In this document: in pieces, positions 1 through 41,230 of the stretch
How positions within the stretch are numbered: position 1 is the first letter of the stretch
How the letters are laid out: every line of letters begins with the position of its first letter
Origin: Psammoneis japonica
Lineage: Eukaryota
DNA: 41,230 nt
Assembly (NCBI GenBank): GCA_008632985.1
Contig: QPGO01000236.1
Location: 62,001 to 103,230 of the forward strand
Direction: 5' to 3'
Notes under the pieces: model-generated
The model's input: only the letters and a program-made list of their open reading frames with translations
Told to the model about the DNA's origin: nothing
Database searches by the model: none
Translations under genes and position numbers: made by a program

Positions 1-1339
1 GCAACCTTGCTTCCCAAACTCGATTTAAGTTGCCATTTCTACATTTTTGAATGACTCACCTCATTTTGTGCATTGTTTGCTGCCTCCAACAGAGTGCAAG
101 TCAGCCAAAAACCTCACCGTCAGAGGATTTGTCAATCGCCAATGTGTCCATTTGATGGTTCAACAAAAGCAGTGGATGTCTAGAAGGGTGCTTCCCCAGA
201 GAAAAATTCTGGATGGTGCAACACAATGTGAAGAGTGCCAAGGTGGTGCCCGATGAACTTCTTTTCAGCATGTTGCTTCACATTGACCACGACTCCTTTC
301 TTCGTGCATGTGGACGATGAGCCAGGAGAAAGATTGAGGAGACTCGCAGTCAGCTCAAGACTGGTGATCTTTGTGGCGCAATCATTGTTAAAATCGTTCC
401 CGAGCACGCAAAGGAGCAATCATGCACTTGTGCCAGTGAATTCCAAGTCGTTCGCAATGACCGAGTTTTGAGACACACAAAACCTGATGAAGTGAAGGCA
501 GCTTTACATTCCACTGACAATGATGAAGAAACTACATTGTCTCCTGACAAAAGCTTGTCATCATCAAGCCATGTGGCTGCCATTTCTCCAGAAAAACACA
601 TCAAGCTGAGTGGCTGCTGACCCCCACAAGACTGTGATCAGACACTTTGAAGACTCAATCAAGAGCCAAAAATCTAGTCCACATGAACTAGCGTCAGTTC
701 TGTCTGACCTGACATTGGAGAGAATGTGTTGGTCCAGGTTTGTCATCTGCAAAGATTCCACCATCTCTTCACTGAAGTCAATTGTGGCGGAGAAGGAGGA
801 GTTGGCATGCGCCTCAGCTGACGCATCAGCTGACAACACCTGTGTGCAATGCAACAAAAACAATGGTGAGTGCAAGGCAGATCATTGACTGCCATGCATG
901 AGTGCAAGCGGTCTTCAAGAAGTTGAGGCACGCGCGCAGCGACGGCCACACAAAGAAACAAAGAAAAGCATGACCCGTCTCCCACAGCAAGGGCCAGAGC
1001 AAACACAGATGTTGCTTGAGATTGACTTGACTGGTGAGTGCTTTGTCCTCTCTGATGAAGAGCCCACTGCAAAGTCTTGGGCACCATTGTGCTTTCTGGC
1101 CACCGACGACAAACCTCCACAATCTTGGTGTCAAGTTTTTCTCAAAGATGAAAGTTTTGGCGAAGAACCGAGAGTCAAGGTTGAGCATTGCAGCAAAGGA
1201 AATTAAAAAAACCAGAGCTGCTGGAAAATTTGCCTTGGTGTTGCAGTCAAATGCAAACAGTCACCCACCCATCACTGCCTCCATTGCAGAATCCATCTCT
1301 CCGATGACAAATGCCACACATCCAGCATTGGAGTCATTG

Positions 1340-1680
1340 CAGGTGCCAATTGTGCCAATGCCAACACCACCCACTCCAACTTTTCCAACTGAATGTTGCC
1401 GGCTGCTCCAATGCCAAACACGACAATGCCGCCTGTGTCAACGATGCTGTCAATGATGACACCTGCACCAACACAAACACCGCTGTGCTGACCACATCTT
1501 GCTCCAACCTCCAATGCCAAGTCCCGCACAGACAGCCACCCAGCACTGCCTGCTCCAACTGCAATGCCACTTGCGCCAACCAATGCCACCGACTGAATCG
1601 CCGGCAGCTCCAATGCAAAAGATGATGCCACCTGCATCAACGACACCATCCATGACACCACCTGTGCCATGCCAAAGACT
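1340..1680 (+). repeat. Degenerate Pro/Thr/Met-rich coding-like repeat
   Basis: Recurring ccaatgcc motifs. 1406-1470 resembles 1609-1670 and translates as PAAPM...MPP.ST..SM.TP. Confidence 0.5.
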
Positions 1681-2791
1681 GCAACATCAAAATGTTGCGA
1701 GTGTCATGCAAATGCAGCTGTCCATCACAGTGTGGTCATTTCACACCCAAAGGAAAAGCCATTGTCATCCATCTGCGAAAGGTGGTCATTGAAAGAAAAA
1801 AATGTGAGGCATTCAAAAAGCTGAAAAGGTCATGGGATGATCACACACAAAGTCTCGCATGATTTTTCTGCAGCGGGTTGAAGAACAGACAATGTGCCAG
1901 GCCTGCGGCCACAATGTCCCACCTTTCACGTGGTGGGGGAGGGACCTGGAGAGGCGTCTTGCAGCCATGTGCATGTCAATGGGAATCTTTTGAAAATGAC
2001 CCGTGATGTGGAGAGCATAAAATGATTGAGGATGCCTGCAGAATCTGCACGTTTTTGTGCTGAAACTGTTGTGTTCACACAATTTGTGCAAAAACAGACT
2101 TGACTGTTGTCGCGTCAGGTGCATTTTTGCAAATGTGTTGAAGAAAAATGCACCTGATCAGAAAACAGTCAAATCCATTTTTCGCAAAGTTAAAATTCAC
2201 TGAGGACAGACAGACCAACTTGTCTTGGCACTGTCCTGCACAATTTGTGTGCAATGACTCTACAGCACAAAAGATTGCCATTGAGCCAAGCATTGTGCAC
2301 CAATCAGGGCCTTGAAGTTTAAGTTGTTTTTTGGAATTTTGAAAAAATGGGACCTCATTGGTCGGCGAAAGGAGGAGCAAACGGAGCGAGATTTTTCAAA
2401 CCTGATGGATGGGTCTTGCTTTTGTGGACCAAGTGCAACACATGAAGGTGGATGAGGAAACACGATGGTTTCAGGGTTCTGTCTGCGTTGCCATGCATGG
2501 AACACCGATTGTGAAGTTGAGACCAAAATTCAGAAAAAGAGCTCGTGACATGCCACACGATTGCACAAAAGCAGAAATGTCTCCAAAATGGTTCTACAGA
2601 TTTTTTTATGATTCGCTCATGTCATGTGGCTGAGTGAAAGAGATGTTTTGGAAATGAGAAAAGTGGGGGGATTCTGACTCATTTTCAAGATGGAAGGCAT
2701 TGAAGTTGTTAAAAAATTGCACAAATGACGTCACTGCCTGAAAAAGCATTCTTTGATGAGAGTGCATGTGAGGAGTTGTAAATTTTTTTTA

Positions 2792-2916
2792 AGAAAATGG
2801 ACATCATGTGGTTGATGCAGTCACACGAACAAGGGGTGGTTGACGCGCGCATTTTTGCAGGCAGTGCGCGTGAATTTTGAGCTGATTCTGGCGCCGTGCT
2901 CCGTTGTGATGGTGGG
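2792..2916 (+). repeat. ~125-bp dispersed repeat, second copy at 38031-38156 (reverse)
   Basis: aaaatggacat...ttgacgcgcgcatttttgcaggcag...gtgatggtggg is shared. Confidence 0.85.
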
Positions 2917-3550
2917 TTTTTGTTGTCTTCCAGGCGTGGTGTCAGCACACTCTGTGGACTGTCGTTTGGCATGCGGTCTGGGCAGGTGGCAGTCGATTGT
3001 GTCCGGGTCTTTCAGCATTTGTGGAGGGACAGACCTGCACCATCTTCCCACTGGGGTCACCTGGAGCTGATCTGAGAGGCGGGAACACGGGATCCCCTGA
3101 GGCAACGGTGGATTGCCCTGACTGTGGTGACACTCATCCTCGCGTTGACGCAGCTGCATGCTTCAGAATGTGGCTTTTGCCACTTGTCTAAAAGTGTTGA
3201 TGCCATCTTGGGATGTCTCTTGAAAAGCCGTGATGATGAGAATGGTGTGTGGTTGTTCCAGACAAGGCTGGAGGTGCTTGCGCTTCTTTTCATGTTCGTG
3301 GCTTGCTGTGGCTTCTTCTGGTGTTTTGGACAGGTGTGGCTTTGCATCCGTGTTGGGGACGCAAACATCCATCACCATGTCTGTCCTTCCATCCCAAAAT
3401 CTCATGCTGAGAAGGTCTCCACGATCACCATCCTTGGACTTGCTGGAGTTGGTGTTTCCTGAAGTGCTGTTGGGGGTGCTTGAGCTTCCCGTGCTGTGAC
3501 CAGCAGGGTTGATTGGGGGTTCGTCGCGCATGCAGGAAGGTTTGCAAGCC
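2917..3550 (-). mobile_element. 3' fragment of an RLE-type (CRE-like) non-LTR retrotransposon
   Basis: RDEPPI...RGDLL..FW...DV.V.NTDAK...EKKRKHLQPCLEQ (3163-3531) and KWQKPHSEACSCVNARMS...RCLRGSRVP (3057-3200) resemble the restriction-like endonuclease C-terminus. Ends in caacaaaaa and is cut at the TIR of B. Confidence 0.75.
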
Positions 3551-4295
3551 CATCAGAGTGCACGAAATGTCAAAAATGTGCAGATTTGCACAATGATGAT
3601 TTGTCGAAATGTTGCAAAAAATTGTTGTCACACAATGACAGGCCAACCTCTGGTCACAAGTTTGCCACACCAGCGTTGCAACAACTTGTTGAGAATTGTG
3701 CACGCCATTTTTCACTGTGCCCACATCACTGCATCTGCCTCATCAGAGGCCGCAATGTGGTGTTGTTCACTTTCCTTTGGAAAATTTGGAACATTTATTT
3801 TGACAATTGTGTGCAAAAATTAGTGACAGTTCATTTGTTTTTTGACAGTCAATTTGCATTTGTTGTTGCCATTTTATGTTGGCAATTGTCGCCGTTTTGT
3901 TTTGCTTTTAAGTTGCCAAAGAATTTCAATGAGCCCTTCATTGTTGAGTGATGCTTTTTGTTTTGATTAATTTTTCACATGTTTGTGGAATCGTCAACTT
4001 TGACAGTGCTTTTCAACAGCTTCACCGCAGCCTTGCATCACCACAGACAATGGCATTTCTCCCTCGCCCCAGTCGGCCATGCAGTTGCCCAGAGGAACAC
4101 TGTCTCATTGTTTCCACCTGCACGCTCCAGTTGTCCAGTCAATGGGCCCCTGCCTGCATTTTGGTGCCTTTTCTACATGCGCAGTTCTCTGCCCATTTCA
4201 CAACAGCACACCCTCTCCCCAAAATGCTTTTGATGAGAGGGTGCACTGTTGTGAATCCTGTGCATTCTACGTGAATCGGCAACTGACTGTTGGCC

Positions 4296-9374: not shown

Positions 9375-12300
9375 TCACCTGCTTTTGTGAAACAGCTCTC
9401 CCCATGCATTTCTGTGGTCTTGAACTGCCCAAACATGCTTTGTCCTGTCGTGTGTCTCAGCAATGCCGGGTTGCTCCTCATGCACCAACAATTTGTCGCC
9501 AACAGCATCGATGGGCACCAAGAAAAGCTTGGGTGAGTGCACTGTTTGTTCAGCAGAGGACAAGTTGTTGTTCTTCACTTGGCCCAATTGCCAGCGACCA
9601 ACCAGGTCGGTGTGTTGCATTCGTTCAACCATGGCACGCTTGTCAGGCTGGTGCATGCAAGGGTGAACGACCGCACACAAGTCTCTGTCGCTTTCCCTTT
9701 GGAAGAAACAGTGAAGTCTTGACAGGAAGCACAATTCCCCCCTGGTTGTGCCAAAGTCAACATTCGCCCAGTCGTGAACCGGTCCTTCACTGTTGCAGTC
9801 TGGGTGTGCGCGGCAAGTGTCTTTCCCATTCTTGTGGTGGAATTCGGTTTTGCAAACAAGGTTGACGGTGAGGTTGCCTCCTGCTCCAACGCATTCCCTC
9901 CACTTCTTTTGAAAGAAATGGAGCAGGACCGGGTGAACCTGACATTGTTTTTGCTTTCCGTGCCAGAGAAAGCTCGCTGCATTGTTTGTCGCACTGCAGG
10001 TGATGGCGAAGGTGCTGCCACCCAGTGTGTGACTGTCGTCACCACGTGTGACGTCCTTTCATCCAACTCTCGATGTGATCCATGGGTTGGCCGACAACGC
10101 ACGGTGCACCGTCATTTGGTCTTGCATGCGCGACGCAACCTGACCTAGGAAGATGTCAAAGCTGCATTGTTGTGCCGTGGCAGAGGGCAATTTGAAAAAA
10201 TCCTTGAGCAAAGATTCTCCAAGACCAGTGTCAAAGTTCATGGCATGACGGAAACAATGTAGAAAGATTGGAAGGTGAAGAAGCTCGTGAAGTTTTTGCA
10301 GCTTCCACCCAGCCCCTTCGTGTCTGGGGGAGCAATGTACAATGCGAGACACCAGCAACCGAATTTTCTTTGTGATTTTGGTCAGGTCAGTTGTGTCGGT
10401 CGGTGGGTCGCCGAGTCGACACCAAGCATGGAAGGCAAGCAGGTCTTCCAGCAACTGGATGCATTGCCTGACACTGCAACTGAGGGGCTTTCTCTTTTTT
10501 TTCCTTTTCCGTTGATTGTGGCTGTTGCCTTCATCCTCGGACTCGTCCGGTTGTTGTTCCACATGATCGTCTTCATCCGTTTTGTACGGATCATCTGTTC
10601 CATTGTTGGAATGATGATCGTTGCCATTGTCGCACTCTTCCGGCATGTGACAGCGATTGATTCGGAACCCAGGCATCCCACACCCTGACGGCAATGGAGG
10701 ATTGTCTTGGTCTTCCTGGAGAAAACAAGATTCGCAGACATCTCTGCCTTCCTTTGTCAGCAGCAACAAACAAAAAACAAAGGCCATCCCCGCCCAATGA
10801 TGTGAGTTGAGGTGGGTGAGTGATGTTGCCCCGCCCTTGAAATTGGTTCGTAAGAAAGAATTGCACGTGGATCGGTGATTGCCAAACATTTTTTCCACTG
10901 ATCTGTCGACCTCGCTTCTCACTGAGTTTGTCATGCTGTCGACAAAAACACCAACCTCCCTTTTTAAAGTTCCGTTTTCAAAAAGGTGCATCATGTCGCT
11001 TGCCGTGGAAATGGTTGCTCCGAACAGCTGTTCTCCGAAATCTGCATTGAGCAAGCTGCTGGTGGGCACATTGTGCTGCTTCATGTGATGAAGCTGCTGC
11101 AGCCAGTGGTTCCTTTCTTGCTCGTCAAGACTGAGATCATTTGCGTGGTTCTGGACTGACAAAATGTCACCAGCCCTGACCAGCTTGCACTCCTTCCAAG
11201 GGTTGTCAAGCTCATTGCATCCGGTCGTGCAAAACCTGGAACAACGTTGGTGACAGTTCTTGGCACCACACCTGCCCACAAGGCAGTCACCACTCTTCGC
11301 ATCTCCGTTGATCAGGACTGTTGTTGGAATGACATGAAGGAAACGCATCTCATCACTGCATCGAACGCAGCAGCAAAAGCCACCGTTTTCCATTGTGTCC
11401 AGCAGAGGCTGGAGCATTGTTGCCAACACCTTGTGACAATCCCGGATGCTTTGGCCCTTCTCCGACTTTCGAGTGTTAGATTGCTGTTTGGCGGCGGAGG
11501 AGGACATTTTTTCCAGGTCGGGAATGCAACCAAGGACACGCCACTTTGCTCTGTCATGCCATTGGTTGCAGGCAACATGAGCCGACGTAACTGTGACAGG
11601 TTCTCCGCAGGAAGACGACATGGAGGCTGTCTTCCCAGTCTTGTCAACGTGAATCATCAAACATTCAAGGAACTCTTTAAGAGGATCTGAGACCCTGGCT
11701 GTGCATGCACTTCTGCACCACTCTCCTGCCAAAACACACTTGTCGTGCTTTCCCTTTGAGACATGCATTCCGCATGGATCGGCAGTGGGGTTGGCCCATG
11801 TGCAAGCATCCAGCATGAACGATTCCCACACATCTTTGAAATTCCATCGCGGAACTCTTGCTGTTGTCTCACCGCGTTCCCCATTGACGCTTTCTAGGTT
11901 GACTGGAATCATCTCGCATTCCGGACCTGCAAAAGATTTGTGCAGGTTCTCCATCAGTTTGGTGTGGCGAGGGATTTGCGTTCCAAGATGGAAGGCACTG
12001 CCACAGTGTCTTTTGATGAACTCGGCGATCTTGTCGCACAGGTGAAGCGGTGCTCTGCAGTTGTCTAAGAGCTTGCACAGCTCTGCACAAGCACTGTTGA
12101 GGTTGCTGAGAGATGGCATGCGCGCAAAGGCATCTTCGGATGGGCTGCGGTGCACCTCACCCAATCGGCTGTCTTCACTCCGCGAATCATCTTCGTCCAA
12201 GCTGTTTGATTCGTCAGGATTTGTAACTTCAGAGCCCTCCATTGTGACATCTGGCAGTGCGTCAAACGAGTCATCTGGTGACAAGCTGGCTTCGGAAGAC

Positions 12301-12758
12301 AAGTCCAGGGACATGTCATGAATTTCCTCATGATGGGATCGCGACCCAAGAGCGGAAATGTCATCATCAAACGGTGGTGACCATGGTTCATCGCTTCTGT
12401 CATTTTCGTTGTCAGTGGACCCAAGCCCAATGTTCGCTGCGGACGCACCTTGTCTGGACCGCCTCAGCCATGGCTGTGACGCGTCATCTGATGAGGAGGA
12501 AATGTCGAGATCAACTGACCCACATCTGCGAGAGAATTTGTTGCTGGCGTTGGAAGATTTAGCCACAACCCTTGCTGACAACTCTGGCATTGGGCAGTTT
12601 GTGACTGCATCGCGACGTGACAAGTTGGGCATCTCTTGAGCAAACAAAAAACACAGTGGGTCATGATGGAAATGGGTGAGCATCCGTTTGAAGGATCGTT
12701 TGCAACGGGGACATGCCACCACACCACCCCCACCCTGCCAACCACCATTTCCTTCCAT
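9375..12758 (-). pseudogene. Plavaka-like transposase of element A (hypermutated, frameshifted C-terminus)
   Basis: 899-aa ORF 10059-12758. N-terminal CPRC..H..C zinc finger, then IHVDKTG, VLGCIPD, RDCHKVL, GDAKSGD, DMMHLFENG and KLHELLH. Downstream pieces CRAHPDCNSEGPVHDW and LVPIDAVGDKLLVHEE. Only one Tyr in 899 aa. Confidence 0.8.
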
Positions 12759-13055
12759 TTGTCATTGCAGCAGGTTTGTGGGCTGCCCAAACACATGTGT
12801 GTTTGAATGGCAGCACCAGCTCAGTTCTTGAAAAGTGAAACAGTTTGGGCGGCAAGGAAGGAAAACATGACATGAATTGGCGCGAAAACATGGGTGCATT
12901 GTGTTCTTCCCATCAATGAAAACATTGACAGGTGAGAATGAATCGAACGCGTTGCGATGATTGATGACTTTGAGCATGAACAACTGACTGCAAATGTTGT
13001 TTTTCTGCGGAAAGGAAAAAATGAGTTGTGACGTGATGAGCCGTGATGCGTTGCA

Positions 13056-14533
13056 GTGAGAAGTCCAGGAGGGGCGCACCCACACCCACTGCAGCACCAG
13101 ACACAAACGTTGCAATCAACAATGAACGCTGTTGTGCAAAATGACCGCTTGACGGCACATTGGCCAAATGACCACTGGAGGAGATTTGAAAGTTTGACAA
13201 TCATGACGGCAGATGGAAGGCGACAAATCATGGAATCGGAGCAGAAGGCGGCTTTTGATGAATTGGGTTGTTTGATGCAAAGTTCACCACAAGGCAGGAT
13301 GGTGCATTCTGATGACACGGGTGTGGCTTTGATCGAGTTTGAGAGCGGTGCACATGCGGTTGACCCGTGCCTGCGCCGTGACGCAATGGACCTGCAACGC
13401 ATGATGAATGAGGACAACATCGAAGGGAGGTGGCGGGAACTGTGGAAAGAGAGGTGCAACCACATGGTTTGGCTGCACGAACATGTGAGTGATTGGAGCA
13501 CAGAAGTGATTGAGCACATGCACGCCAGCACAGGCAGGATCTGAATTCATGACAACCTGAACTGGTTGAATGGCGTCGTCAACCGTGGGATCAATGCTCG
13601 CCATTGCCCGGAGCATTGGGGCTGCATCGCGACTCACCAAGACAGGCAAGGAAGGATGTGCTGTGTCTGCAGCACTCTGCACAATGAAGGAGAGAAAGAG
13701 CTGAGGGATGAATTTGCAGTGGGTGCGTGTGATGATGCAAAACCAGTCATTGACAGGGGAGACGTTTGAGATTGAGACGGAATTCGAGCGTCAGCATGCC
13801 GACCTGTGGCATGGACGAGACAGGCACTTGTGGACCGTTGGGAGAAACATCGGCAAGGGGAGGCACACACGGACTTGCAATGGACAAGAAGGGAATTGTT
13901 TGCGATGCATTAAAACTGGCGAAGTGGTTCCAGCGTGACATCGTGCGAGACAACCATGAAAGACTTTGGTTCTGTGAGCAAATGGAGTTCTTCAGGTTGT
14001 CTCCACGGACAGTCAATGAATGGATGCTGGACATCATCTGGAAGGAGGATGGTGAGCGGGAGAAATTTCAAAGCAGGAGAAAGGAAAAGCGTTGGGTGGA
14101 GAGACGTTGTCGCATTGAAGTTGACGAATTCGTGAGAATGGTCGGAGCGGAGACGAGGGCTTTCACCCACATGACTGACTGTTCCGACATCGGGCGACAC
14201 ATCAAGTTGAGAGTTACAAAGTTAGAGGGTGATGATGAGTTGGGCCAGAGAAAACGATTTGGCACCAAAAAGGATGGATGTGCTCAGGCCCCAACAGCAA
14301 ACCGGAACAACGTCAAAGCAGGTGAGGGGTTTGTTCATTGCAGTAAAAACAACTTTCACAGGTGCACGTTTCACAATGATGTTTTGAACAAAATGCTTTT
14401 GCAAGCAATTTGCACTGTGGAAGTGGATTTCGAAATTGCAGCAAAAGAGAGGTTTGAACTGGAATTCGCAATGATTCAAAATTTTCACAAGATTGCACGG
14501 AGTGGTGAAATGGATGAATTGTGTGCACATTAA
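13056..14533 (+). pseudogene. Extra uncharacterised gene specific to element A
   Basis: Same-strand ORF run 13056-13544, 13566-13769 and 13766-14533 with protein-like composition, broken by stops and a frameshift. No counterpart in B or C. Confidence 0.5.
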
Positions 14534-14686
14534 AAGATTTGGTTGATTCTCAATTGTGTTGCATTTGAGAAAAAGGAATCATTGATGGTGACTGTGAGAT
14601 TTTTGGTGTTAAAGAGAGGTTTGAAAATTTTCCAACGGCGAAAACAACTGGGACACAAGGCATGGAGCCACCCACAATTGGCGACA

Positions 14687-15910
14687 ATGGCAAGGAAGAA
14701 GAAGAAAGGAACTGCAGGGGTGGCTGGAGATCAACCAACAAGCCCAAGGCCAGCCACAGTGTTGGTGCGGGTGGGAGCCACTGGGGATCACCAGCCCACA
14801 AAGAGAGAGGTAGAAGAGGTGGCGCGGAAGGAACTTTTCCCAAAGGCAAAATTCCTTGTCAAGGCGGACATGGCAAGCAGCGGCAAAGTGTCGCAGCTCA
14901 TCAGGAAAAAGACAGCTGGAGGAAATTGCAGCAAGCAAGACTGGGCAGGAGCGTGGGAAGACTGGGCAAAGAAGTGCGTCATGCGTGCAATTAACGCGAA
15001 AAGGAGCACGGTCACTCAGGCGATCAAGAACAATGCAATGGCTGGCAAGTGTTTTGTGGTGCACGGCATGTTGAGTGCAGTTGCACTTGACACAACTGCA
15101 CCTTTGTTTGTTGAAGTCATGTTGACAGAGAATGAAGCAGAGGAGACACGCAGTCAGAAGCTGGCAGCAAAGGGTGGAGGTGGGAAGAAGATCAAGAAGA
15201 GGAAGAAGAACGATCGTACGGAAGAGGAAGAGCCGTTCCTGGCAACTTGGGGGGAGGAGACTGTGACAACGATTGTGGAGGACAAGCGCAAGAACAAGAA
15301 AGCATGTGCTTGGTTCTACGAAAACATCCTGAAATTCACAAAGAGCACCACCACATGGAGAAGGAAGGTGGAGTCGGGTGAGACAAAGGCAACCGGTCTG
15401 GCTGCAGCGAGCAACGAGGCTCCAGCGCTGTTGACATTGGAAAACTGCTGGAAGAGTTGGGAGCACAAGGCACGTCATGACAAGACTGTTGCAGCAGGGG
15501 GGGGTTCGGACGAAGAAGATGAGGAGGAGTCGGAACCAACACCCAAGCACACGGACCCGTCAAGGCAATGAGACTCGTGGAAAGATGCAGGGATCAAGCG
15601 ATTCAACAAACTGCTTGCGGCAGCAAAGAAAGACAGGTTGAGTGAGGAGGGCATGCAGTTCGACACATGGCACAGCGAAGGCAAGAAAAGGAAGAGTGAC
15701 GAAAGAGGCAAGGGATCAAAAAGAAAGAAAAAGCAGGTGGAGGAGGCAAGAACACAGGCAACGATGGAGCTTTCAAGTGACGACAAGGAGAAGGAGGAAG
15801 AGGCAACGGACGAGAACAGAGGAGATGAGGACAGTGACGAAGGGGAGGAGGACAGCGATGCGGAAAGCGATGCGAGTGTAGATGCAGATGGTGAGCGAGC
15901 TGCGGCATGA
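14687..15910 (+). pseudogene. Accessory gene of element A (basic/acidic protein, function unknown, one probable intron)
   Basis: ARKELFPKAKFL...SNEAPALLTLENCW...SWKDAGIKRFNKL. Homologous to the accessory genes of B and C. Probable intron starts at mutated donor GCAAGT, 15045. Confidence 0.7.
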
Positions 15911-16482
15911 AAAGGCAGCGGAGGCTTTTGTCAGTGTGACAATGGAAAGAGGACAAGCAATGTAGCAGGCTTCAATGCCAACAGTTGCAAGCTTTGATGG
16001 GGCATCAAAGGGATCATTGTTTTGTGATCTAACCTTTCGTTTGACAACCAGTGCATGCAACAGAACCAGTGTGTGCAATGGAAGGTTCTCTTGACCAATG
16101 CAACGCAATGATTGGCATTGAATTGTCACTGACCAAAACGTTGTGAACATTGCTTTCAAAAGGTAAAAAGTGACGGAATTCTGATGGTTGAGGGAGGGGT
16201 CCCATGGGCAAAGGAGGGGTCCCATGGTGAAAAATGCAATGCTGTGACACACAACAAAAAATCACGTTCTACACAACTCACTCAATGTGAAACTGTTGCA
16301 CTCATGCCTGTGACAGTGTTGAAAATTGCCTGCAAGAAGGGTGGTCAGGATCACTGTGTTTCACGCTCTGATGCTTCACCTTGTTGCCATGTGCCAATGC
16401 ATGATTGCATTGCCACACAATCCTTGGTTTGTTGATTTTTTCAAACATCATTTTAAACAAGAAAAGCATTTCATCGGTCAAG

Positions 16483-17710
16483 TCAATCCCTTGTTGCGTC
16501 TGCAGTGCAATGACCGAGTGCCGTGTTGACTGTGTGCACATTTTCTTGCTGCAACTCTCTTAAACTGAGCTGATGATCATCATCAGACTGGCCTCCATCG
16601 GACTCGTCTCCTCTGTTGTTCGTTTTGCCTTTTGCACCTTCCTCCTGCTCATCGTCGTCACCATTGTCGTCCCTGCTGCTCTCCACCATTGGGCTGTTCA
16701 TTGCCTTCACGTTCTCCGCATCACCGGTTGGTGCTTTCTTCTTCTTCTTTTTTGCTTCTCCGGACTTCTTGCACTCGCTTTTCTTGATCTCTGCATGCCA
16801 CTTTTCAAACTCCTTGCCCTCGTCACCTCTTTGCACAAATCATTGAGCCGATTGATTCCGTCATCTCCCCAAGACACTCGTTGTTTCTTTGGCTTCATGC
16901 ACCAAGGGGCAGGCCTTGTTTCTTCGGGCTCCATTTCCTCACCCAATTCTTCCGCCGCCTCCTCCTTGTTCCTGCATGCCCACACCTGCCAACAATTCTC
17001 CATGGCCAACAGCGCCAAAGCTTCGTCACCGACCTTAAACAACTGTGAGACCTGTGCATTCCCAGTTTTGATGGTGCCACTCCATGCCTGCTTTTGCTTG
17101 GTGTGAGGCAGGATGTGATCACAGAACCACTTGCGTGCCTGCTTGTTCCTTCGTTTGCCGCCGGCGACAGTGTCCAGGGCAAACGAATCCCATGTCAGCA
17201 CAAACGGGATGTCTTTCTCTTCATTCTTGTCACGGCTTGACTTTTTCCTGCCTTGCTTTTCCTCCTGACTGCCGCCTTGAGTTTCTTTTCTTTTTCCTTT
17301 CCCTCTTCCTTGGCGACAATGCCCACACAGACAAAGCATCGCCATCATCTTCTTGTGAGATGCGCGCAACTCTCGAATCACACACATTGGTCACTTGGCT
17401 TGCGGGCCATTGCCTCCGCCCCAACAGCCGAACACACCGTGTTTCTGCGATTGTCAATTTGCCTTTTTTCCGCCTTTTTTGCCCATTCCTCACAAGTTCC
17501 TGACCAATTTGAAGTGTCCATGTTGCCGCCAGCAATCTGTTTCTTGACAAACATTGAGACGCTCCAATTGCTTGCCAATTCTGATGGACTGAGAAACTTC
17601 ACCTGTGGAAAGAGATCATTTCTGGCCACCTTCTCTGCTTCTGATTTCAATGCACCATGCGCTGCCTGCGCACCTGTTCTCTTCAACACTGCCTGAAGTC
17701 TCGGGCTCAT
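16483..17710 (-). pseudogene. Accessory gene of element B
   Basis: ARNDLFPQVKFL...GDEALALLAMENCW...SWGDDGINRLNDL. Paralog of 14687-15910 and near-identical to 36209-37434. Confidence 0.7.
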
Positions 17711-18600
17711 TGGCTCAACAGTCTCATTTTTTTTCTCTTCTTTGCCGGTGGTGCTGGAGACGACATCTTGATCTTTTCATGTCAACGATGAGAGGAGTGT
17801 TGCTGCTTGACAGTGCAACCATCGTTTGGGTCGTGTTGAGACAGCCAGCCACTCTGTTTTTCTCTGTGACATTGCACAAATCATTGTCAGCAAAATTGAA
17901 ATTTGAAAATGTGTTTGTGTGTGACAACGAACAGCTCAACTTGCTTTTTGATGGGACATTTTCCATTTGTCAGGCTGACTCCTCTGCTGCCGCCTTGAGA
18001 TTCTTTTCTTTTTCCTTTCCCTCTTCCTCAGTGACAACGTCTGTGCAGACAAAGCATCACTGTCATCTTCTTGTGAGACATGCGCAACTCTCGAATCACA
18101 CACATTGGTCACTCAACTTGCGGGCCATTGCCTCTGCCCCAACAGCCGAGCACACCTTGTTTCTGCGATTGTCAATTTGCCTTTTTGCCACCTTTTTTGC
18201 CCATTCCTCACAAGTTCCTGACCAATTTGAAGTGTCCATGTTGCCGCGCAATCTGTTTCTGACAAACATTGAGACGCTCCAATNNNNNNNNNNNNNNNNN
18301 NNNNNNNNNNNNNNNNNNNNNNNNNNNNNNNNNNNNNNNNNNNNNNNNNNNNNNNNNNNNNNNNNNNNNNNNNNNTTTTTTTCTCTTCTTTGCCGGTGGT
18401 GCTGGAGACGACATCTTGATCTTTTCATGTCAACGATGAGAGGAGTGTTGCTGCTTGACAGTGCAACCGTCGTTTGGGTCGTGTTGAGACAGCCAGCCAC
18501 TCTGTTTTTCTCTGTGACATTGCACAAATCATTGTCAGCAAAATTGAAATTTGAAAATGTGTTTGTGTGTGACAACGAACAGCTCAACTTGCTTTTTGAT
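17270..18600. repeat. ~0.7-kb tandem duplication spanning the assembly gap
   Basis: 17985-18283 repeats 17270-17570, and 18376-18600 repeats 17727-17953. Confidence 0.85.
18284..18375. other. Assembly gap (92 N)
   Basis: Run of N. Confidence 1.
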
Positions 18601-21600
18601 GTGGCTGTCATTGCGCTTCAATGGAGACAATGTCCTGCATTTTGATGGCAAATGAAGAGCACAACATCCACTGCAAATGCCAGATAAAAAATCAAAATGC
18701 AGACACGTCACACCCATGAGAATCATCCAAATCTGGAAGACAATGTAATGTTTGCCAATTTCCCGCCATTTTTGCCTGTTGTTCTTCCTTTCCCTTCTCA
18801 TCCACAAGACAAGGACGACAAGCATGAGTCTTGATGAAGGCCCTGTCAATGTTGTCTGATTGACAATGGATGGAAACCCTCTTCTCTGTCCTGGGTGTGG
18901 CAAAAGTTTTTTGTGAATGGCCTGCCATTGGAGATGCTCGCCAATGTGTCACTCAGTTGCCCAAGAGTTGCAAACCCAAGATCAAATCCCAGATCAAAGC
19001 GACATTCCTGCCACAATGGAGGGGCTGCCCAAAGAAAGCGTGGTTCTTCCTCTTCGTCCTCTGATGATGATGAATCCCATCCGAGGCGACATGCTCGCAG
19101 CAGATTCCCAAGATCTTCAACGAGTGATCTGAGCAGCAGCCCCTTGTTCCCCTCCCGGATGATGCACCGCACAGAATGGACGACATGTCCTCTGTTTCAT
19201 CAAACCACAGCATGCATGGAGTTGAGCTTTCAGCAATGAACGATTTGGATGTTGGCGGTGGTCAATCCTTTGCTGCAGTGTTGGACATGACAATGGAGGA
19301 GGAAGAGGACATTCACGATGAGGATCAACGTTTGGGGATCAGGCATCACGCTCCTGCAGAAGAGGCCTTGGCTTCCACTCCCTCTTTGACAAATCTTGAC
19401 GGAGCTTGCGCAGAGTTGTGCAAGAAGCTCATGGACACATGTGGTGCTCCCCTGGAATTGTGCGATTGCATTGTTGATTTCATTGAGAGGCACACTGGGA
19501 ACAGCGACATTGAGCTTGGTGCAGTTCTGCCAAGGAGAAAAGAGTTGATGCGCACCTCAACTGAGCACTTCCCTCTTCCACCCAGCGAGTCCATTCCTGT
19601 CACTCTAGAAACCAAAAATTTCAAAACCGGTTTGCCAAAACGAGTGTCAGTGCCAAGATGGGATTTCACAAAGGTTTGGGAACAGTTTTTGCTCAATCCT
19701 CACCTGTGGCGCAGCAGAGAGAATGTGGCTGATCCAGACAATCCTTTTTTGGAAGCACAAAGTGAAGGGACCGGGCGACAAGTGCCTTTTGGCGGGTGAG
19801 TGGCACAGGCACAGTCGCGAAGAATGGACAACTGACCCGGAGAAACAATTTCTCGAGTGCAATGTCATTTGCCTCGACAAGACTGGCAGGACACAAGGGA
19901 TGGGATCACATTGTGGAGAACCAGTGATCATGACCTCTGCGCATGTTGCCTTCAACAAATGGTCTGACAAGAGTGTCTGGAAACCAATTGGTTGTCTCCC
20001 TGATTTGGAAAAGATGTCATCATCTGCGGCAAGGAATCTCTCAAACAATTGCAAGGCGGAGAAGGGACGCTCGTCAAGAGACTGCCACACTTGCTTGCGT
20101 GTTGTTTTGGAGCCACTTTTGGAAGTCATGAGAAAAGGAGGCATGAAAACATGCGTGCGATGAGGGGATGAGATGCGACACCTCCGCGCAATCCCGCTGA
20201 TTGTTCTGATCACAGGAGATGCAAAAAGCGGCAACTGCGGAGGTCACAACTGTCGCCAATGTTGCTGTCGTTTTTGCCCCATTGGCTTCAACAAACTGGA
20301 CGACCCATGGATTGAATGCGAGTTCATCCGAGGACTGGATCTCCAACAAGTGCAAACTGAGGCCAACAACGACAACAGATCAGACCAAGAAAGGAAGCAC
20401 TGGCTGGGCATCTTGCATCACCTCAAGCAACACAACGCACCTGCCAACTGTCTTTTTGAGGCAGACTTTGGTGCACAACCACATGGCATTGCCCTTGCAA
20501 CAGCAAGCAACATGATGCATCTCTTTGAAAACGGCACCTTGAAAAGGGCAATCAATTCATTTGTGGACAGCATGACACCTGTGGTCGCAAGTGAGGTGGA
20601 CAGCACAGTGGAAAGGATTTTCAGCAATCACCGGTCAACTTGCAAAGCATCCTTTTTGCGAACAAACTTCAAAGGAGGAGCAACGTCACTTGCCTTCCTC
20701 AACTCTCACCACTGGGCTGGAATGGCTTTTGTTTTCCACCTTCTCCTGTCAACCAGCGAGGGACGAAATGCATGTGAGTCATGCTTCCTTGACGAGGACG
20801 CAGACGAACCCATTGTTCCAGAGAATCGCAAGACACCCAAAGCAAACTTTGAGAGTTGCTGCCAACATGGTGAGTGCTTGGACTCTGACGATGAAAGGTC
20901 GGAGGAGTCCGAAGAGGGTGGCTGGGACGAAAATGAGGATGAGAAAGAGGAGAGTGAGGCAGAGGATGGTGACGACAACCAAAAAAAGAAAAAATGCAAG
21001 GGAAAAAGACTCAGCTGCAGCGCCCGGCAATTCATTCAATTGCTTGAGGATCTTCTTGTCTTCCATGCATGGTGCAGGCTGGGCGATCCACCCATCACAA
21101 GCGCAACTCCCAGTTCATCCATTCAGAAAACAAACACGAAAATCCGTCTCCTCATTGACTGGATGTTGCAATTCATCGCGCGAACAGAAGGATGCAGGTG
21201 GAAGCTTCAAAAGCTTCATGAAACACTCCATCTCTTGGTGTTTCTTTGTCATTGCCAACACGCAATGAACTTTGATGCAGGCTTGGGGGAACGCCTCTTG
21301 AAAGACTTTTTCAAGCTGCCATTGTCTGCCACACAACAATGCAACCTTGATGGTTTTCTGAAGCAGGTCGTGTCGCGTGTGGAGGAGGACAGTGCATTTT
21401 GCCAACTGGGAAAAAGGAAACATCAAGAGTCTGGATGGACAATCACACGCTGGGAGGAAGTGCGTTCACTCTCACCTGCAGCTGAGGGATTGGTGCTGTG
21501 ACGTTTGAGTGGACAGCTTGCGCGCTCGTTGCCAAGTTCATCCTGTGTCACTGAACTTCATGTCAGAAAAGTGGGAGGATTGTGTTGGTGAAGACAATGA

Positions 21601-21732
21601 AAACACACGTCTGACTTGCAAGACAGAGTTTTGCCATGCAAGTGGGAGGGATGCGCACCGTGCGCACCCCAGTTGCAAAAGCGAAGGCCCATGGCATGAC
21701 TGTGCCTGTGTGACCTTTGGCACACGAAAGGG

Positions 21733-32437: not shown

Positions 32438-32833
32438 GATGCGTTCCAGCCCTGGGTGGGAGCTCGCAGTGCTGACGTGTGACAACAACAATTTTTGTCA
32501 TCCGTCGCATGTTTCGCACGTAGATTTCTGCGTGTGACATTAAAAAAAAAATGTCCAGACTCGCTGTTTTGCGAAGCCCCAGATGTTTCATGTGACAAAT
32601 TTGTGGAAACAACAATGCGCCAGTTGCATTCTTCAATGTCTGAAGAATGTAGCTGGCCAAGTAAAAAATGATGTGCTTCAATCATGTGCGAGTTTGTGCG
32701 TTCGCAAAATTGCCTCATTTTCTGTTGGCAATCATTGACATTTTAATTGCTGCACAATTTCACTGTGGAGCTCACACGCAGAAGTCTGCGGGCCCAATGT
32801 CACACGGATTCCCACCTGCGTCTGGAATGCGTC
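32438..32833 (-). mobile_element. 396-bp MITE, copy 2
   Basis: Same TIR with one mismatch at each end and TTGA duplicated. The empty site is in element B at ~28290-28320. Confidence 0.92.
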
Positions 32834-35430: not shown

Positions 35431-35952
35431 GACGCGTTCCAGACGTGGGTGGGAATCCGTGTGACATTGGGCCCGCAGACTTCTGCGTGCGAGCTCCGCA
35501 GTAAAATCACGCGGCAACCAAAATGTCAGGCCAATTGGAGCACAGTTGTTGATCAAGACGCGTTCCAGATGCAGGTGGGAATCCGTGTGACATTGGGCCC
35601 GCAGACTTCTACGTGCGAGCTCCGCAGCAAAATTGTGCAGCAATTAAAATGTCAATGATTGCCAACAGAAAATGAGGCAATTTTGCGAACGCACAAACTC
35701 GCACATGATTGAAGTGCATCATTTTTTACTTGGCCAGTTACATTCTTCAGACATTGAAGAATGTAACTGGCGCATTGTAGTTTCTATAAATTTGTCACAT
35801 AAAACGTCTGGGGCTTCGCAAAACAGCGAGTCTGGACAATTTTTTTTAAATGTCACACGTAGAAATCTACGTACGAAACATACGACGGATGATAAAAATC
35901 ATTGTTGTCACACGTCAGTGCTGCGAGCTCCCACCTGGGGCTGGAACGCGTC
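35431..35952 (+). mobile_element. MITE copy 3 (98-bp partial copy + 28-bp foreign flank + full 396-bp copy 35557-35952)
   Basis: TIR at 35431, 35557 and 35941-35952, with CGCA duplicated outside. The empty site is in element B at ~18605-18625. Confidence 0.9.
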
Positions 35953-36208
35953 CGCAATGACAGCCATGTCAAAAAGCAAGTTGGACTGTTTGTTGTTGTG
36001 CACAAATGTGTTTTCAAATTTCAGTGTTGCTGACAACAACCCATGCAATGTTGCAGAGAAAAACAGAGTGCCTGGCTGTCTCAACATGACCCAAACGACG
36101 GTTGCACTGTCGAACAGTGCCGCTCCTCTCATTGTTGCCGTGAAAAGATCAAGATGTCATCTCCAGCACAACTGGCAAAGAAGAGAAAAAAATGAGACTG
36201 TTGAGCCA

Positions 36209-37434
36209 ATGAGCCCGAGACTTCAGGCAGTGTTGAAGAGAACAGGTGCGCAGGCAGCGCATGGTGCATTGAAATCAGAAGCAGAGAAGGTGGCCAGAAA
36301 TGATCTCTTTCCACAGGTGAAGTTTCTCAGTCCATCAGAGTTGGCAAGCAATGGGAGCGTCTCAATGTTTGTCAAGAAACAGATTGCTGGCGGCAACATG
36401 GACACTTCAAATTGGTCAGGAACTTGTGAGGAATGGGCAAAAAAGGTGGCAAAAAGGCAAATTGACAATCGCAGAAACAAGGTGTGCTCGGCTGTTGGGG
36501 CGGAGGCAATGGCCCGCAAGTTGAGTGACCAATGTGTGTGATTCGAGAGTTGCGCATGTCTCACAAGAAGATGACAGTGATGCTTTGTCTGCACAGACGT
36601 TGTCACTGAGGAAGAGGGAAAGGAAAAAGAAAAGAATCTCAAGGCGGCAGACAGGAGGAAAAAGAGGAAAAAGTCAAGCCGTGACAAGAATGAAGAGAAT
36701 GATGTCCCGTTTGTGCCAACATGGATCCGTTTGGCCCAGACACTGTCACCGGCGGCAAACAAAGGAACAAGCAGGCACGCAAGTGGTTCTGTGATCACAT
36801 CCTGCCTCAAACCAAGCAAAAGCAGGCATGGAGTGGCGCCGTCAAAACTGGGAACACACAGGTCTCACAGTTGTTTGCGGTCGGTGACAAAGCTTTGGCG
36901 CTGTCAGCTGTGGAGAGTTGTTGGCAGGTGTGGGCATGCAGGAACAAGGAGGAGGCGGTGGAAGAATTGGGTGAGGAAATGGAGCCCGAAGAAACAAGGC
37001 CTGCCCCTCGGCACACAAAGCCAAACAAACAATGAGTGTCTTGGGGAGATGACGGAATCAATCGGTTCAACGATTTGTGCAAAGAGGTGACGAAAGACAG
37101 AGACTCCAAGGAGGGCAAGGAGTTTGAAAAGTGGCACGCGGAGATCAAGAAAAGCGAGTGCGAGAAGTCCAGGGAAGCAAAAAAGAAGAAAAAGAAAGCA
37201 CCGACCGGTGATGCGGATGAGGTGAAGGCAATGAACAGCCCAATGGTGGAGAGCAGCAGGGGCAACAATGGCAACGACGATGAGCAGGAGGAAGGCGCAA
37301 AAGGCAAAACGGACGATGGAGGAGACGAGTCCGATGATGATCGTCAGCTTAGTTTGAGAGAGTTGCAGCAAGAAAATGTGCACACAGTTGACATGGCACT
37401 CGGTCATTGCACTGCAGATGCAACAAGGGATTGA
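36209..37434 (+). pseudogene. Accessory gene of element C
   Basis: Reverse-complement copy of 16483-17710 (ORF pieces in 35672-36541, 36721-37035, 37036-37434). Confidence 0.72.
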
Positions 37435-39422
37435 CTCAACCGATGAATGGCTTTTCTTGTTTGTGACAATGTTTGCAAAAATTGACAAACCAAGGATTGT
37501 GTGGAAATGCAACCATGCATTGGCACATGGCAACAAGGTGGAGGCAGATGTGGTGATGTGGATGCAGTGAAAAACAGCATGCATGATTCTCAACAAGTTG
37601 TTGCAACATTGGCGTGGCAAACTTGCAACCAGAGGTTGGCCTTTCATTGTGTGACAACAATGTTTTGCAACATTTTGACAAATCATCATCATGCAAATCT
37701 GCACATTTTTAACATTTCGTGCACTCTGATGTGTGTGATGTTCGCCGCTGCTCGGAAGACAAGATGGCGCGTCAATCGATGATGACAACACCTTCTTGTC
37801 ATTGTTTGAAAGCACTCAAACCAACCATTGACAGCTTCGTGTTGGGCGCGAGCGACGGTTTTCATGTGTTGGTCGGCATTCCGCAGGCCGGTTGGTGCCA
37901 CACAATGCTGGTGTCTGTTGCTGTGTGCCCCATCAGCTGGGTGATGCTCTCCATGTTGAAGTTCACAATTGGTTGCCTCTTGAGCTGCACTCAAATCAGG
38001 CAAACCAGCTGGGCAGGGGCCATTCACCCACCCACCATCACAGAGGAACACGGCACCACAATCAGTTCAAAATTCATGTGCGCTGCCTGCAAAAATGCGC
38101 GCGTCAACTGCCCCTTGTTTGTGCAACTGCATTGATCACACAATGTCCATTTTTCTGTCTGTGATGGGATTGTGGCGAGTCAAATGTCAGCACATTGATT
38201 TTCAAAAAGAAGCTGGAGTTGTGGCGCGCACCAAGTTTAAATTCACAGTTGGCTCTGTCCCAACCCACGCCCATTGTCTCAACGCATCTTCATGCATGCC
38301 ATCACAGATTCCAGCCATTGTTGTTTCAGGATCATGCAGTTTGAGAAAACAAGGGGTGTGCAACAAATGAGTGGGCAGAAACCCATGTGGCACATTGCCA
38401 TCATCTTCAAGAAGGCCTCACAACTCGCACACCACGTCTCGCGGAGAGCAGAAGTGAGGTGCAAACCTGTGGTTCCAAATCCGTTCCGACCCCATTGGCC
38501 TCTGGACAATGCCCTGCGCAAGACAATCCACTGTGGCTTTGGGCAGTTGGGCGGTCATGGCGGGCGATGCATGCTTGTCTGAATCGTGTGTTTGATGTTT
38601 GTCATGCTGTGACGGTGCACTGCTGCTGCTGCTGTCATTGTCGTGCATGCCACGCAGAAGTTTTTGGTGCAGCAGGTTGGGTTCTCATCAAGTTGAGAGT
38701 GTGGTCAAATTTTGTTTCGGGGATGCCACCTGCAGGCCATTTTCTAAGATTCCCTTTGGGCGCGGTTCGGGAACGATTTGGGAACGCTTTTGGAGCGTTC
38801 CGGGAGCAGCGGAAATGCGGGAATGACGAAATGCCCATTTCGTCGAATGGCATTTCCATGATGGAGCCATTGGCGGTTGTCACAGTTCTTGTTTGGTGCC
38901 AAGCAATGCCAGCAGTTACAGTGCATCCTGACAGCTCAACTTGTGGCCACTGCAACTCAAAATCATTGAGACTGCCAACAGCCATTTTTTTCTTAGAAAA
39001 AACAGAAACCTGTTTTGACGGGTGCACCTTTTGGCAACAAAGCCATCAAATCAATTTGACTTTTGCAATTGCGCGTGTCACATGGACAGTTGGAAAAATG
39101 GTGCACTTCACAATGATGCACTGTCCATTTCATCAGCTGATTGACAGGCTCCAAAGATGGCTCTGCACGTGAATTGGTGTGGTTGAGAACGTTCTCGGTG
39201 CATTCTCGGAACGCTTTCGGAATGCTTTTGGCACAACATGCAAGGGAATCTTGAAGCCCAACACTTCACAACAGTCCCCCCCGAGAGGCCTTTTTTGATT
39301 TGGGGGTTGGAGCAACTTGGCGGGATTTGAATTTGAAACCAACTGTCCCACAAAAAGAGGGTGTCAAGATGGTTGTGAATTGTTCCGGGATCGCGATGCG
39401 AACCTCCAAGTCGTGTTGTGCT

Positions 39423-39554
39423 GCAACTCGACATCATCACTCCTTCATGCCACAGCACACAAAAAAACACACACGATGCCAAAAATGTGCAGCAACTCGA
39501 TCATCACTCCTTCATGCCACAGCACACAAAAAAACACACACGATGCCAAAAATG
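39423..39554 (+). repeat. ~65-bp direct tandem duplication including a start codon
   Basis: gcaactcga..tcatcactccttcatgccacagcacacaaaaaaacacacacgatgccaaaaatg occurs twice. Confidence 0.9.
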
Positions 39555-40605
39555 AACACCAGAAGCAAGTCAGCGCTTGGTGCTGACTTGAAACCTCCCC
39601 CCAATTTTTGCAAGGGATCCCCTGACCACATGCTGCTCAGGGATCTCCTGTTGCAAAACAGGGTCAATCCTGGAGCATGCCAAAGGAGGTTCAGGCCATG
39701 CATGCTGAGTTCACGAGGCATCCACTTGCCAAGTTTTGCACTCAGCTGTGCAAGCTGAAGACAGAAGCTGGCTTCAACCTGCGTCAATGAAGCATCAATG
39801 AAAGCACCGCACCACTGGCAGATGATGGTGCCAGTGGAAGCAAGTGTCGCCTCATGCTGCACAATGTCAAATGAAAGACAATGCACTCTCATGTTGCTCT
39901 TTTTTTCTCTTGACTCTTGTCCACTTGTTTCAAAAGGGAAGACCTTGAAATGGACAAGGACGAGCTCTCAGCCAACGCTGGCCTGCTGTCAGCCAAGGAA
40001 ACCATCAGTTGTGCAGCCGTCGCCCCCCCACTGCTGAGGACCCCCCAGCATTTGAGGATGAAAAAACATTCAAGCCCGTGGTTTTGCAGGCAACCTGAAA
40101 GGATTCTGTCAACAAGACAGACCATGTGGTGCCAGTGATTGCAGCTCCCTCAGGAGTGTGCACTGAGGACCTTTCTGGCTTCAAGCTCACCATGACGGGT
40201 GGCAGTTGGTTTTTACAGCGCACCTCCAAGTGGCCAGGTCACAGCATGGACATGGACTCACTCCATGCTGTGCTGGTGGAGGAGGCACAATCCCAAGAAG
40301 AACAAGAGCTCAGGGATGTGCGCAAGCACCCAGAGGCACTTTCGGACAAGTTGTCCTTGATGAGGCTGTTGGACAGTGATGCACTGGCATCAACGGCCAC
40401 CACTCCTTTGCCCATCAAAGTGTCAAAAAAGATCAACAAGGTCAATCTTTTGGGAGGCAAGGATGGTTCAAGAATTGCACATGCTCACCTCAAAGCCAAG
40501 GACTCAACACACTGCTCTGTGGAGAGCCCCAAGGTCATGTTGATTGATGGCACTTGTGTGGAGAAGTGGGGTGGCATGGCGGTTTCTTTTCGTTTTGCGT
40601 TTTAG
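39543..40605 (+). pseudogene. Probable second (DNA-binding partner) gene of the Harbinger-like element
   Basis: Divergent from the transposase. Frameshifted pieces PKEVQAMHAEFTRHPLAKF..QL.KLK and VIAAPSGV...KWP...DMDSLH. Two-gene organisation is typical of PIF/Harbinger. Confidence 0.45.
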
Positions 40606-41140
40606 TTTTCACAGCAGCAACAAGGACAAGTGTGGCGGCTGCCATTGGAAATGCCAGCAGTTCAGAACATTGGCTCGGCTGCATTGTTGTGCTTCTTGTG
40701 GCAGCACAACAGCGTCTTTGCATCTTGTTTCAATCCATGACATTGTTGACAATGGCGCCGCGTGCCGGTGCCAGCAGCAGGCCACCGGCACAGCACATCG
40801 ATGCAGTGTGCATGGCGGCACAGTCGGCAGCATCGGCTGTGGGCACGTGTGCTGTCAGAGCACGAATCCTTTAAAATGCGAGAAAAAAAGGGGGGAATGA
40901 AAATTTCCATTTTTCATGCAACTCCCCGATCAGGATGGTGAAAATGAGTGAAAATGTTGCACCCCCAACAAGCAATGTTGACTTCAATCTGGAGTGTGGT
41001 CGGCCAATGTTTGCGCGCGTGTGCACACCACAAGATGGTGGGGTTCGATGATTTGTGACTTGCGGCCTTTTCCACGGGTCTCTGATGTTGGCTGTTCATT
41101 TGGTGTTGAAGACAAATGTGCCCATCTGTCAAACTCTTGT

Positions 41141-41212
41141 GCTGCGGAGCTCGCACACAGAATTCTGTGGGTCCAATGTCACACAGATCCCCGCCTTGGA
41201 CTGGAGTCCATC
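41141..41212 (-). mobile_element. Single terminus of a diverged relative of the 396-bp MITE
   Basis: Aligns without gaps to 32762-32833 (ggagctc...ccaatgtcacac...ctgga). No matching second end found. Confidence 0.6.
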
Positions 41213-41230
41213 TTTGATGCCATTTTTGCC

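Follow-up and report, generated by a model that had tools for sequence, protein, structure and literature searches.

A footprint of TpA to TpG/CpA mutation in 41 kb of mobile-element DNA from Psammoneis japonica

We analysed a stretch of 41,230 nt from Psammoneis japonica (contig QPGO01000236.1 of assembly GCA_008632985.1, positions 62,001 to 103,230 of the forward strand), which as a whole is called the window in the following. Judging from homology and gene order, it appears to be made of nested mobile-element copies, namely two inverted Plavaka-like DNA transposons and a number of unclassified repeats, whose copies number tens to hundreds. Nearly all TpA dinucleotides have been lost from this DNA. 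The loss was caused by mutation that followed the separation of the copies and does not reflect a preference in composition. We consider it probable that the mobile-element DNA underwent a targeted, TpA-specific T:A to C:G hypermutation, inside the genome and after insertion, by deamination of adenine.

Loss of TpA along the window and between its repeat copies

Given the number of T (10,475) and A (10,447) among the 41,138 called bases, about 2,660 TA dinucleotides are expected from base composition; we count 174, an observed to expected ratio (O/E) of 0.07. At the same time CA and TG are in excess (O/E 1.62 and 1.61), CG is reduced (0.59) and the remaining dinucleotides are all near 1. Each of the 42 bins of 1 kb is depleted, with a TA O/E between 0.00 and 0.23, and the G+C content is steady (49% overall, 41-52% per bin). 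The scarcity of TA claimed by a first-pass annotation of the window is therefore real.

Next, we asked in which sequence contexts TA survives. The same annotation had described the survivors as mostly YTAR; YTAR does have the largest share, but this share is only about half (86 of 174: TTAA 49, TTAG 14, CTAA 12 and CTAG 11). Among the other survivors there are 30 CTAC/GTAG and 29 GTAA/TTAC, and ATAT, ATAG and GTAT do not occur at all. With both strands pooled, TA/(TA+TG) is 0.010 for TAT, 0.031 for TAC, 0.042 for TAG and 0.082 for TAA. Depletion is heavy in all 16 NTAN contexts and most complete in TAY/RTA, so that the strict TAY to TGY rule that had been proposed does not hold. Note that CTTAGC sites are kept in a 48-bp tandem repeat at 7928-8107 and form part of the surviving TA of that bin.

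The direction of the changes can be read from the repeats. A comparison of the window with itself gave 25 repeat pairs with 71-99.6% identity, and we counted discordant dinucleotides in the 14 pairs of at least 190 bp (6,150 aligned dinucleotide columns). Between copies, CA in one against TG in the other is more frequent than any other difference, with 112 sites; any other double difference occurs at 8 sites at most, and CG against TA at none. At 34 further sites one copy has TA and its partner TG or CA, and transitions account for 497 of the 616 mismatches. Since CA and TG are two steps apart, one step in each lineage from TA, the CA/TG sites represent ancestral TA that mutated separately in each copy. 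Polarised in this way, the substitutions run from TA to TG or CA.

A family of three copies of about 400 bp brings out this polarity directly. Of its 50 variable columns, 30 fall in 19 TA/TG/CA sites, and at 3 sites all of TA, TG and CA are present. The three copies also form a gradient, with 15 TA (rho 0.47) in one of them and 6 and 5 TA (rho 0.21 and 0.17) in its sisters.

Both strands were hit alike, as follows from the balance of TG and CA per kb (chi-square 58.7, 41 degrees of freedom, the lowest heterogeneity among complementary pairs) and from the alternation of the two states without runs. We considered whether the strands were mutated in coordinated events and rejected this, because no runs of CA or TG states were found along 9 repeat pairs (lowest P 0.084). 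Taken together, the CA/TG discordance, the three-state sites and the strand balance bear out the earlier proposal of a double-stranded, context-specific T:A to C:G mutator.

Most of the variable columns outside TA sites in the three-copy family (about half or more) are CG against TG or CA. The change of CpG to TpG/CpA is a second, weaker process acting on the DNA of the window, and cytosine methylation probably marks the same DNA, as in silent chromatin. For comparison, two of the related loci described below (L027 and L015) have a CpG rho of 0.02 and 0.11, CA and TG at 1.4-1.7 and normal TA, which is the classical footprint of 5-methylcytosine (5mC) decay and contrasts with the window.

The sequence is also present in sequencing reads. 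In one public run (X1) we found 51% of the sampled 31-mers of positions 6001-16000, and contigs built from this run were compared with positions 1-18000. Single X1 contigs of 290-337 nt show 0-1 differences to the window at a word depth of 72-99, and 1,399 of the 6,707 placed contigs are at least 99% alike. The read contigs thus carry the same TA-poor sequence, with the proviso that X1 may itself have been the source of the assembly. Where other copies differ, transitions prevail by about 10 to 1 (A>G 192, T>C 202, G>A 248, C>T 217; 13-36 for each type of transversion), and several of them are adjacent CA/TG pairs. From the summed depth of 190-21,000 we estimate anything from several to a few hundred copies. 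No RNA data set was listed among the runs that contain the window's words, and two other runs (X2 and X3) have next to none of them. A low-depth X2 contig of 1,049 nt matches 77 nt of the window (2882-2960) and has TA at ordinary density in its flanks; this flank may be a glimpse of unmutated DNA beside a repeat fragment.

Tyrosine loss, open frames and relatives elsewhere

The codons of tyrosine contain TA, and the long open reading frames (ORFs) of the window are nearly free of this residue: there is 1 Tyr in the 900-aa ORF, 2 in the 623-aa ORF and none in the 626-aa ORF, and 11 of the 15 other long ORFs have none either. Cys (5.0-6.1%) and His (3.9-5.3%) are raised in the long ORFs compared with the means of 147 normal homologues (2.25% and 3.21%). 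Paralogous motifs differ in the way the first-pass annotation had given: IHVDKTG (11651, minus strand) stands against ICLDKTG (19870, plus strand), and CRAHP (9815, minus) against HRAHP (21656, plus).

That Tyr is the ancestral residue at these Cys and His sites, as had been supposed, is supported by the homologues. We selected the 10 alignment columns in which at least half of 120 normal transposase homologues have Tyr. At these columns the 900-aa frame has His twice, Cys three times, Ser and Arg once each and three gaps, while it largely keeps conserved Phe, Trp, Cys and His. A related locus with unmutated sequence (L017, a metagenome locus with a TA rho of 0.56) allows a second comparison. 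Facing the 53 Tyr of its proteins, six window ORFs have 15 His, 15 Cys, 2 Tyr, 6 Phe and 15 other residues; as controls in the same comparison, Phe is retained at 34 of 88 positions and Trp at 13 of 20. Compared with four close homologues of the transposase, the window shows 35 changes of Tyr to Cys or His and none in reverse, and 20 of Val to Ala (GTA to GCA) with 6 in reverse.

The change of TA to TG or CA creates no in-frame stop, since TAA becomes TGA or CAA and TAG becomes TGG or CAG; in other codons, NTA gives NTG or NCA and ANN gives GNN. In the six frames of the window we count 172 TAA, 79 TAG and 1,932 TGA. Because the loss of TA removes TAA and TAG stops, as many as 136 ORFs of at least 110 aa crowd the 41 kb, and a long ORF is here no sign of a working gene. 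On the other hand, an open frame of 900 codons is far beyond chance at the roughly 0.027 stops per codon that follow arithmetically from the six-frame counts. The 900-aa frame was once a genuine gene, which missense and not nonsense changes have ruined.

We then looked at relatives of the window in other data. Related loci were found on 38 metagenome contigs and on 6 contigs of metagenome-assembled genomes, and in all 44 of them the TA rho is normal, with a range of 0.27-0.87 and a median of 0.66. Likewise, 147 of the 150 best homologues of the 900-aa ORF contain 1.1-4.7% Tyr. The remaining three (P0056, P0087 and P0106) come from environmental assemblies and have 0.08-0.09% Tyr, that is about 1 Tyr per 1,100-1,300 aa, together with raised Cys and His; they share 26-42% identity with each other and with the protein of the window. 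These nearly Tyr-free proteins suggest that TpA has been erased in other contigs as well, possibly in other organisms. An apparent bias towards Cys only (P0056) or His only (P0106) at the conserved Tyr columns faded once more columns were included (P 0.39 and 0.58 at a 20% threshold). Scans of metagenomes and genomes with the 900-aa protein alone found no relative, nor did a scan of viral contigs with an alignment (A1). The searches brought up no protein relative with a name.

Elements of the window

The coordinates of the features are collected in Table 1. A homology search with the 900-aa frame yielded 1,004 sequences at E ≤ 1e-3, the best of them at 3.9e-157. A Pfam search with the frame itself gave no match even at E ≤ 10, and 8 of 10 sequences aligned with it match PF18759 (Plavaka transposase) at E ≤ 1e-3. 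In the second, broken copy, the first ORF hits the Plavaka family with E 0.0015 and 18.3 bits, which is under the curated cut-off of 26.3, and its DNA is 71% identical to that of copy A over 354 bp.

Table 1. Features of the window (positions are those of the window)
Feature	Position	Strand	Basis
Whole window: TpA-poor, CpA/TpG-rich nested repeats	1..41230	.	dinucleotide O/E
Gap of 92 N	18284-18375	.	N run
Plavaka-like transposase copy A	9378..12761	-	homologues, PF18759 in aligned relatives
Copy A open frame, 900 aa (P0001)	10059-12761	-	ORF
Copy A C-terminal piece with CRAHP, behind stop	9378-10058	-	motif
Plavaka-like transposase copy B, broken	19609..21700	+	Pfam hint, motifs, identity to copy A
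Copy B frames (184 and 445 aa, 0 Tyr) and HRAHP piece	19609-20160, 20164-21498, near 21656	+	
Copy A accessory genes, convergent on transposase	4692-5582, 5212-6396, 6596-8467 (P0002)	+	
Copy B accessory genes, convergent on transposase B	23150-25030 (P0003), 25275-26378, 26269-27771	-	
Upstream ORFs, divergent from transposase A	13754-14533, 14534-15571 (together 13754..15571)	+	
Unclassified high-copy repeat	16374..17951, inverted partner 35969-37543	.	88.9% identity
Least-mutated copy of ~400-bp repeat	35527..35952 (in the three-copy family 35556-35952)	.	15 TA, rho 0.47
Sister copies of ~400-bp repeat	24978-25375, 32437-32834	.	6 and 5 TA

Both transposase copies are accompanied by further genes. 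In L017, a 780-aa and a 462-aa ORF adjoin the end of the transposase and are convergent with it, and both copies in the window have these accessory genes in the same order. In tblastn comparisons with the two L017 ORFs, the accessory genes of copy A, in the order of the table, give E values of 3.9e-11, 1.5e-20 and 1.4e-50, and those of copy B 4.4e-27, 6.4e-21 and 1.6e-14. The accessory ORFs of copy B (626, 367 and 500 aa) contain no Tyr, and the proteins P0002 and P0003 are 26% identical (E 8e-21). Upstream of transposase A, the ORF at 14534-15571 matches ORFs found upstream of the transposase in three related loci (L006, L012 and L014; E 1e-13 to 8e-11), and the region 35648-36541 is, from translations compared by eye, a paralogous fragment. 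The two transposases, the L017-like gene order in both copies and the counterparts of the divergent ORFs argue for two inverted, multigene, Plavaka-like copies. Transposase and accessory genes travel together in the window (4692-15571 and 19609-27771), in L017 (1-5469) and in L006 (301-5000).

The function of the accessory genes was not apparent from any of the searches: they match no Pfam family, a PDB sequence search gave nothing (E 0.055), an Atlas search gave no usable match for P0002 and only leads of at most 0.77 for P0164, and a word-index search with P0003 found no match. The 623-aa ORF includes the 48-bp tandem repeat mentioned above (3.8 copies), which encodes an acidic, Ser-rich peptide (…NELSSLS.EES…).

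Among the repeats without classification, the one at 16374-17951 has a summed contig word depth of 14,000-21,000, compared with about 60-100 for single contigs. Between it and its inverted partner there are 28 CA/TG discordant sites, no site with TA in both and 4 with TA against TG or CA. In Pfam searches of 22 and then of all 136 ORFs of at least 110 aa, no family passed a curated cut-off, and none of the ORFs was found to contain a reverse transcriptase, an integrase or another transposable-element domain. The only carriers recognised are Plavaka-like DNA transposons, and the statement of the first-pass annotation that every class of transposable element was hit is not supported. Scans of the window for tRNA genes and Rfam families found none.

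Known systems, possible mechanisms and meaning

Repeat-induced point mutation (RIP, C to T) in fungi and the APOBEC enzymes are known cases in which invading DNA is mutated in a programmed way. In ascomycetes, RIP changes CpA/TpG to TpA, giving an AT-rich product and creating stop codons. The window resembles it in that dinucleotide-specific transitions riddle repeats on both strands and copies differ at the target dinucleotide. However, the direction is opposite: TpA changes to CpA or TpG, the G+C content rises and no stop can be created. Instead of TpA enrichment and an AT-rich product we find a TpA O/E of 0.07, a CpA O/E of 1.62 and 49% G+C. The decay of methylated CpG is another source of TpG and CpA, and its traces in the window are the CpG O/E of 0.59 and the differences of CG against TG or CA between copies, but it leaves TpA untouched and cannot turn Tyr into Cys or His. 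Neither RIP nor 5mC deamination can thus account for the loss of TA, as the first-pass annotation had argued.

The same annotation also suspected an undescribed process. This does not stand, since a preprint of 2026 describes this signature in viral DNA integrated in the genome of Bigelowiella natans; a full-text literature search for TpA-specific loss in mobile or foreign DNA found this preprint as the only report. There, 231 of 302 nuclear mutations in mutation-accumulation lines of B. natans fell in an integrated nucleocytoplasmic large DNA virus (NCLDV, 186 kb) and a virophage (25 kb), and 230 of these 231 were A>G or T>C, all at TpA, at a rate of about 6e-7 per site and generation (Mettrop et al., bioRxiv 10.64898/2026.01.13.699255). 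The preprint further describes 324 coding sequences that make up a low-TpA subgroup, in which DDE endonuclease and reverse-transcriptase domains are over-represented, and 124 clusters, each with three or more TpA-poor windows of 1 kb. Its authors propose an ADAT2 homologue as the DNA adenine deaminase and term a role against transposons "potential" (bioRxiv 10.64898/2026.01.13.699255).

In both cases the change is restricted to T:A to C:G at TpA and yields TpG on one strand and CpA on the other, and both concern foreign or mobile DNA in TpA-poor, CpA- and TpG-rich blocks, with transposon domains enriched in the coding sequences of B. natans. They differ in that a live rate was obtained there in two viral inserts, the B. 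natans type being marked by an ongoing excess rate of about 1e-7 to 1e-6 per site and generation in some lineages, whereas here the direction is polarised from copies. By analogy, the process in the window may be of the same kind as the TpA hypermutation in the B. natans lines, and it would target foreign or silenced DNA instead of the genome at large. In the window a TA turns into TG if its top-strand A is altered and into CA if its bottom-strand A is, both strands were struck equally and in an interleaved way, and over 90% of TA has been lost. The chemistry would be the deamination of adenine in DNA to inosine, which is read as G, and a candidate agent is a TadA/ADAT2-like enzyme that prefers a 5' T. 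ADAR, TadA and ADAT2 deaminases and the engineered DNA adenine base editors likewise change A to G with a preference for 5' T or U, but the natural substrates of ADAR, TadA and ADAT2 are RNA. To our knowledge, no natural enzyme edits chromosomal repeat DNA at such a scale.

Several observations weigh against this explanation. Neither a host gene nor a junction with normal DNA lies in the window, so that the targeting to mobile DNA is presumed; the hints of it are the gradient among the three repeat copies and the flank of a single X2 contig, which is the only sign of normal TA in the same sample. Run X1 may be the data from which the window was assembled, with the library type unrecorded, and its support is then not independent. 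Furthermore, the blocks described for B. natans are small (124 clusters of at least 3 kb with a rho of at most 0.43) and its NCLDV insert has a rho of 0.45, as against 0.07 over at least 41 kb here. Finally, the sequence cannot separate adenine deamination from an oxidation of thymine, which leaves the same symmetric signature.

This last point leads to an alternative that shares the footprint and the targeting and that we regard as unlikely, though worth keeping in mind, namely that the thymine of TpA is oxidised to 5-hydroxymethyluracil (5hmU) or 5-formyluracil by an enzyme of the TET/JBP type, or otherwise modified, and then pairs with G. Since TA to CA is TA to TG on the opposite strand, the symmetric data fit equally well; moreover, TET/JBP genes are linked to KDZ- and Plavaka-type transposons in basidiomycetes, and dinoflagellate 5hmU is found preferentially in TpA. 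On the other hand, we found no TET/JBP domain in the 136 ORFs of the window or in the unmutated accessory proteins of L017, and for the sole experimental precedent, B. natans, adenine deamination is the mechanism proposed, itself still hypothetical. Rather improbable, in our view, is a bias of the whole genome, in which TpA would be lost everywhere and kept only under selection without repeats being singled out. The depletion of the entire 41 kb without a boundary would agree with it, as would six X1 loose-end consensuses (out of more than 600 loose ends) that lack TA in a count by eye. It is opposed by the one repeat copy with a TA rho of 0.47 beside sisters of 0.17-0.21, from which it follows that TA-rich DNA keeps entering, and by the normal TA density in the flanks of the X2 contig from the same sample, which is a single contig.

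We see very little room for an artefact of sequencing, base calling or assembly, by which a modified base in TpA would be read as C or G and the consensus would pick CA or TG at random. Such a random choice would yield the observed pattern between copies, and the possible identity of X1 with the assembly data is in its favour; yet the sites are read consistently in the 31-mer contigs (depth 72-99, 0-1 differences over about 300 nt), the 1,399 of 6,707 placed contigs are at least 99% alike, the three Tyr-less relatives stem from other public assemblies, and in B. natans Illumina data yielded the same kind of change. Just as improbable is an ADAR-like A-to-I editing of double-stranded RNA of the elements, fixed in DNA by reverse transcription. 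ADARs do favour a 5' U and act on both strands of double-stranded RNA, as noted in the preprint (bioRxiv 10.64898/2026.01.13.699255), but the only recognised carriers are DNA transposons, no reverse transcriptase or integrase turned up among the 136 ORFs, and the nearly total loss of TA in non-coding repeats would need the passage of every copy through RNA. In addition, a single-copy, transcriptionally silent insert mutates in DNA in B. natans, according to the same preprint. Least credible of all is a selection against TA, for example to escape a nuclease that cuts at TA or RNases that cleave at UA. While TA is mildly under-represented in most genomes, including the 44 related loci with their median rho of 0.66, dead and divergent copies differ as CA against TG at the same site, with three states at some sites, and essential Tyr residues were sacrificed; selection would furthermore require a loss of TA without a gain of CA and TG, contrary to the data.

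Returning to targeted hypermutation by adenine deamination, a natural editor of chromosomal DNA from A:T to G:C has been proposed only recently, in one alga and chiefly for viral inserts. To this the window adds a nearly saturated end state on multicopy DNA transposons, with more than 90% of TpA erased, the proof from copies that each of them mutated independently after insertion, and the consequence for proteins, that is the change of Tyr to Cys or His in frames that are left open. Genomes can be screened for the combination of long ORFs free of Tyr, CA/TG discordance between copies and a TpA rho below 0.1. For annotation the window is a warning that such long ORFs are ghosts which defeat domain searches. 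It also offers a starting point in the search for the enzyme; as a natural editor of adenine in DNA with specificity for 5'-TA, this enzyme would be useful in practice.

The window may stem from a second organism, other than B. natans, in which the editing of TpA is the main fate of transposons and has come close to saturation in hundreds of copies, and the process may also be widespread among uncultured microbial eukaryotes. We hold this wider reading only tentatively, at slightly less than an even chance; what can be offered for it are the Tyr-less Plavaka transposases in three mutually distant environmental clusters. If it is true, TpA editing would be a general eukaryotic genome defence, the mirror image of RIP, and not the curiosity of one alga.

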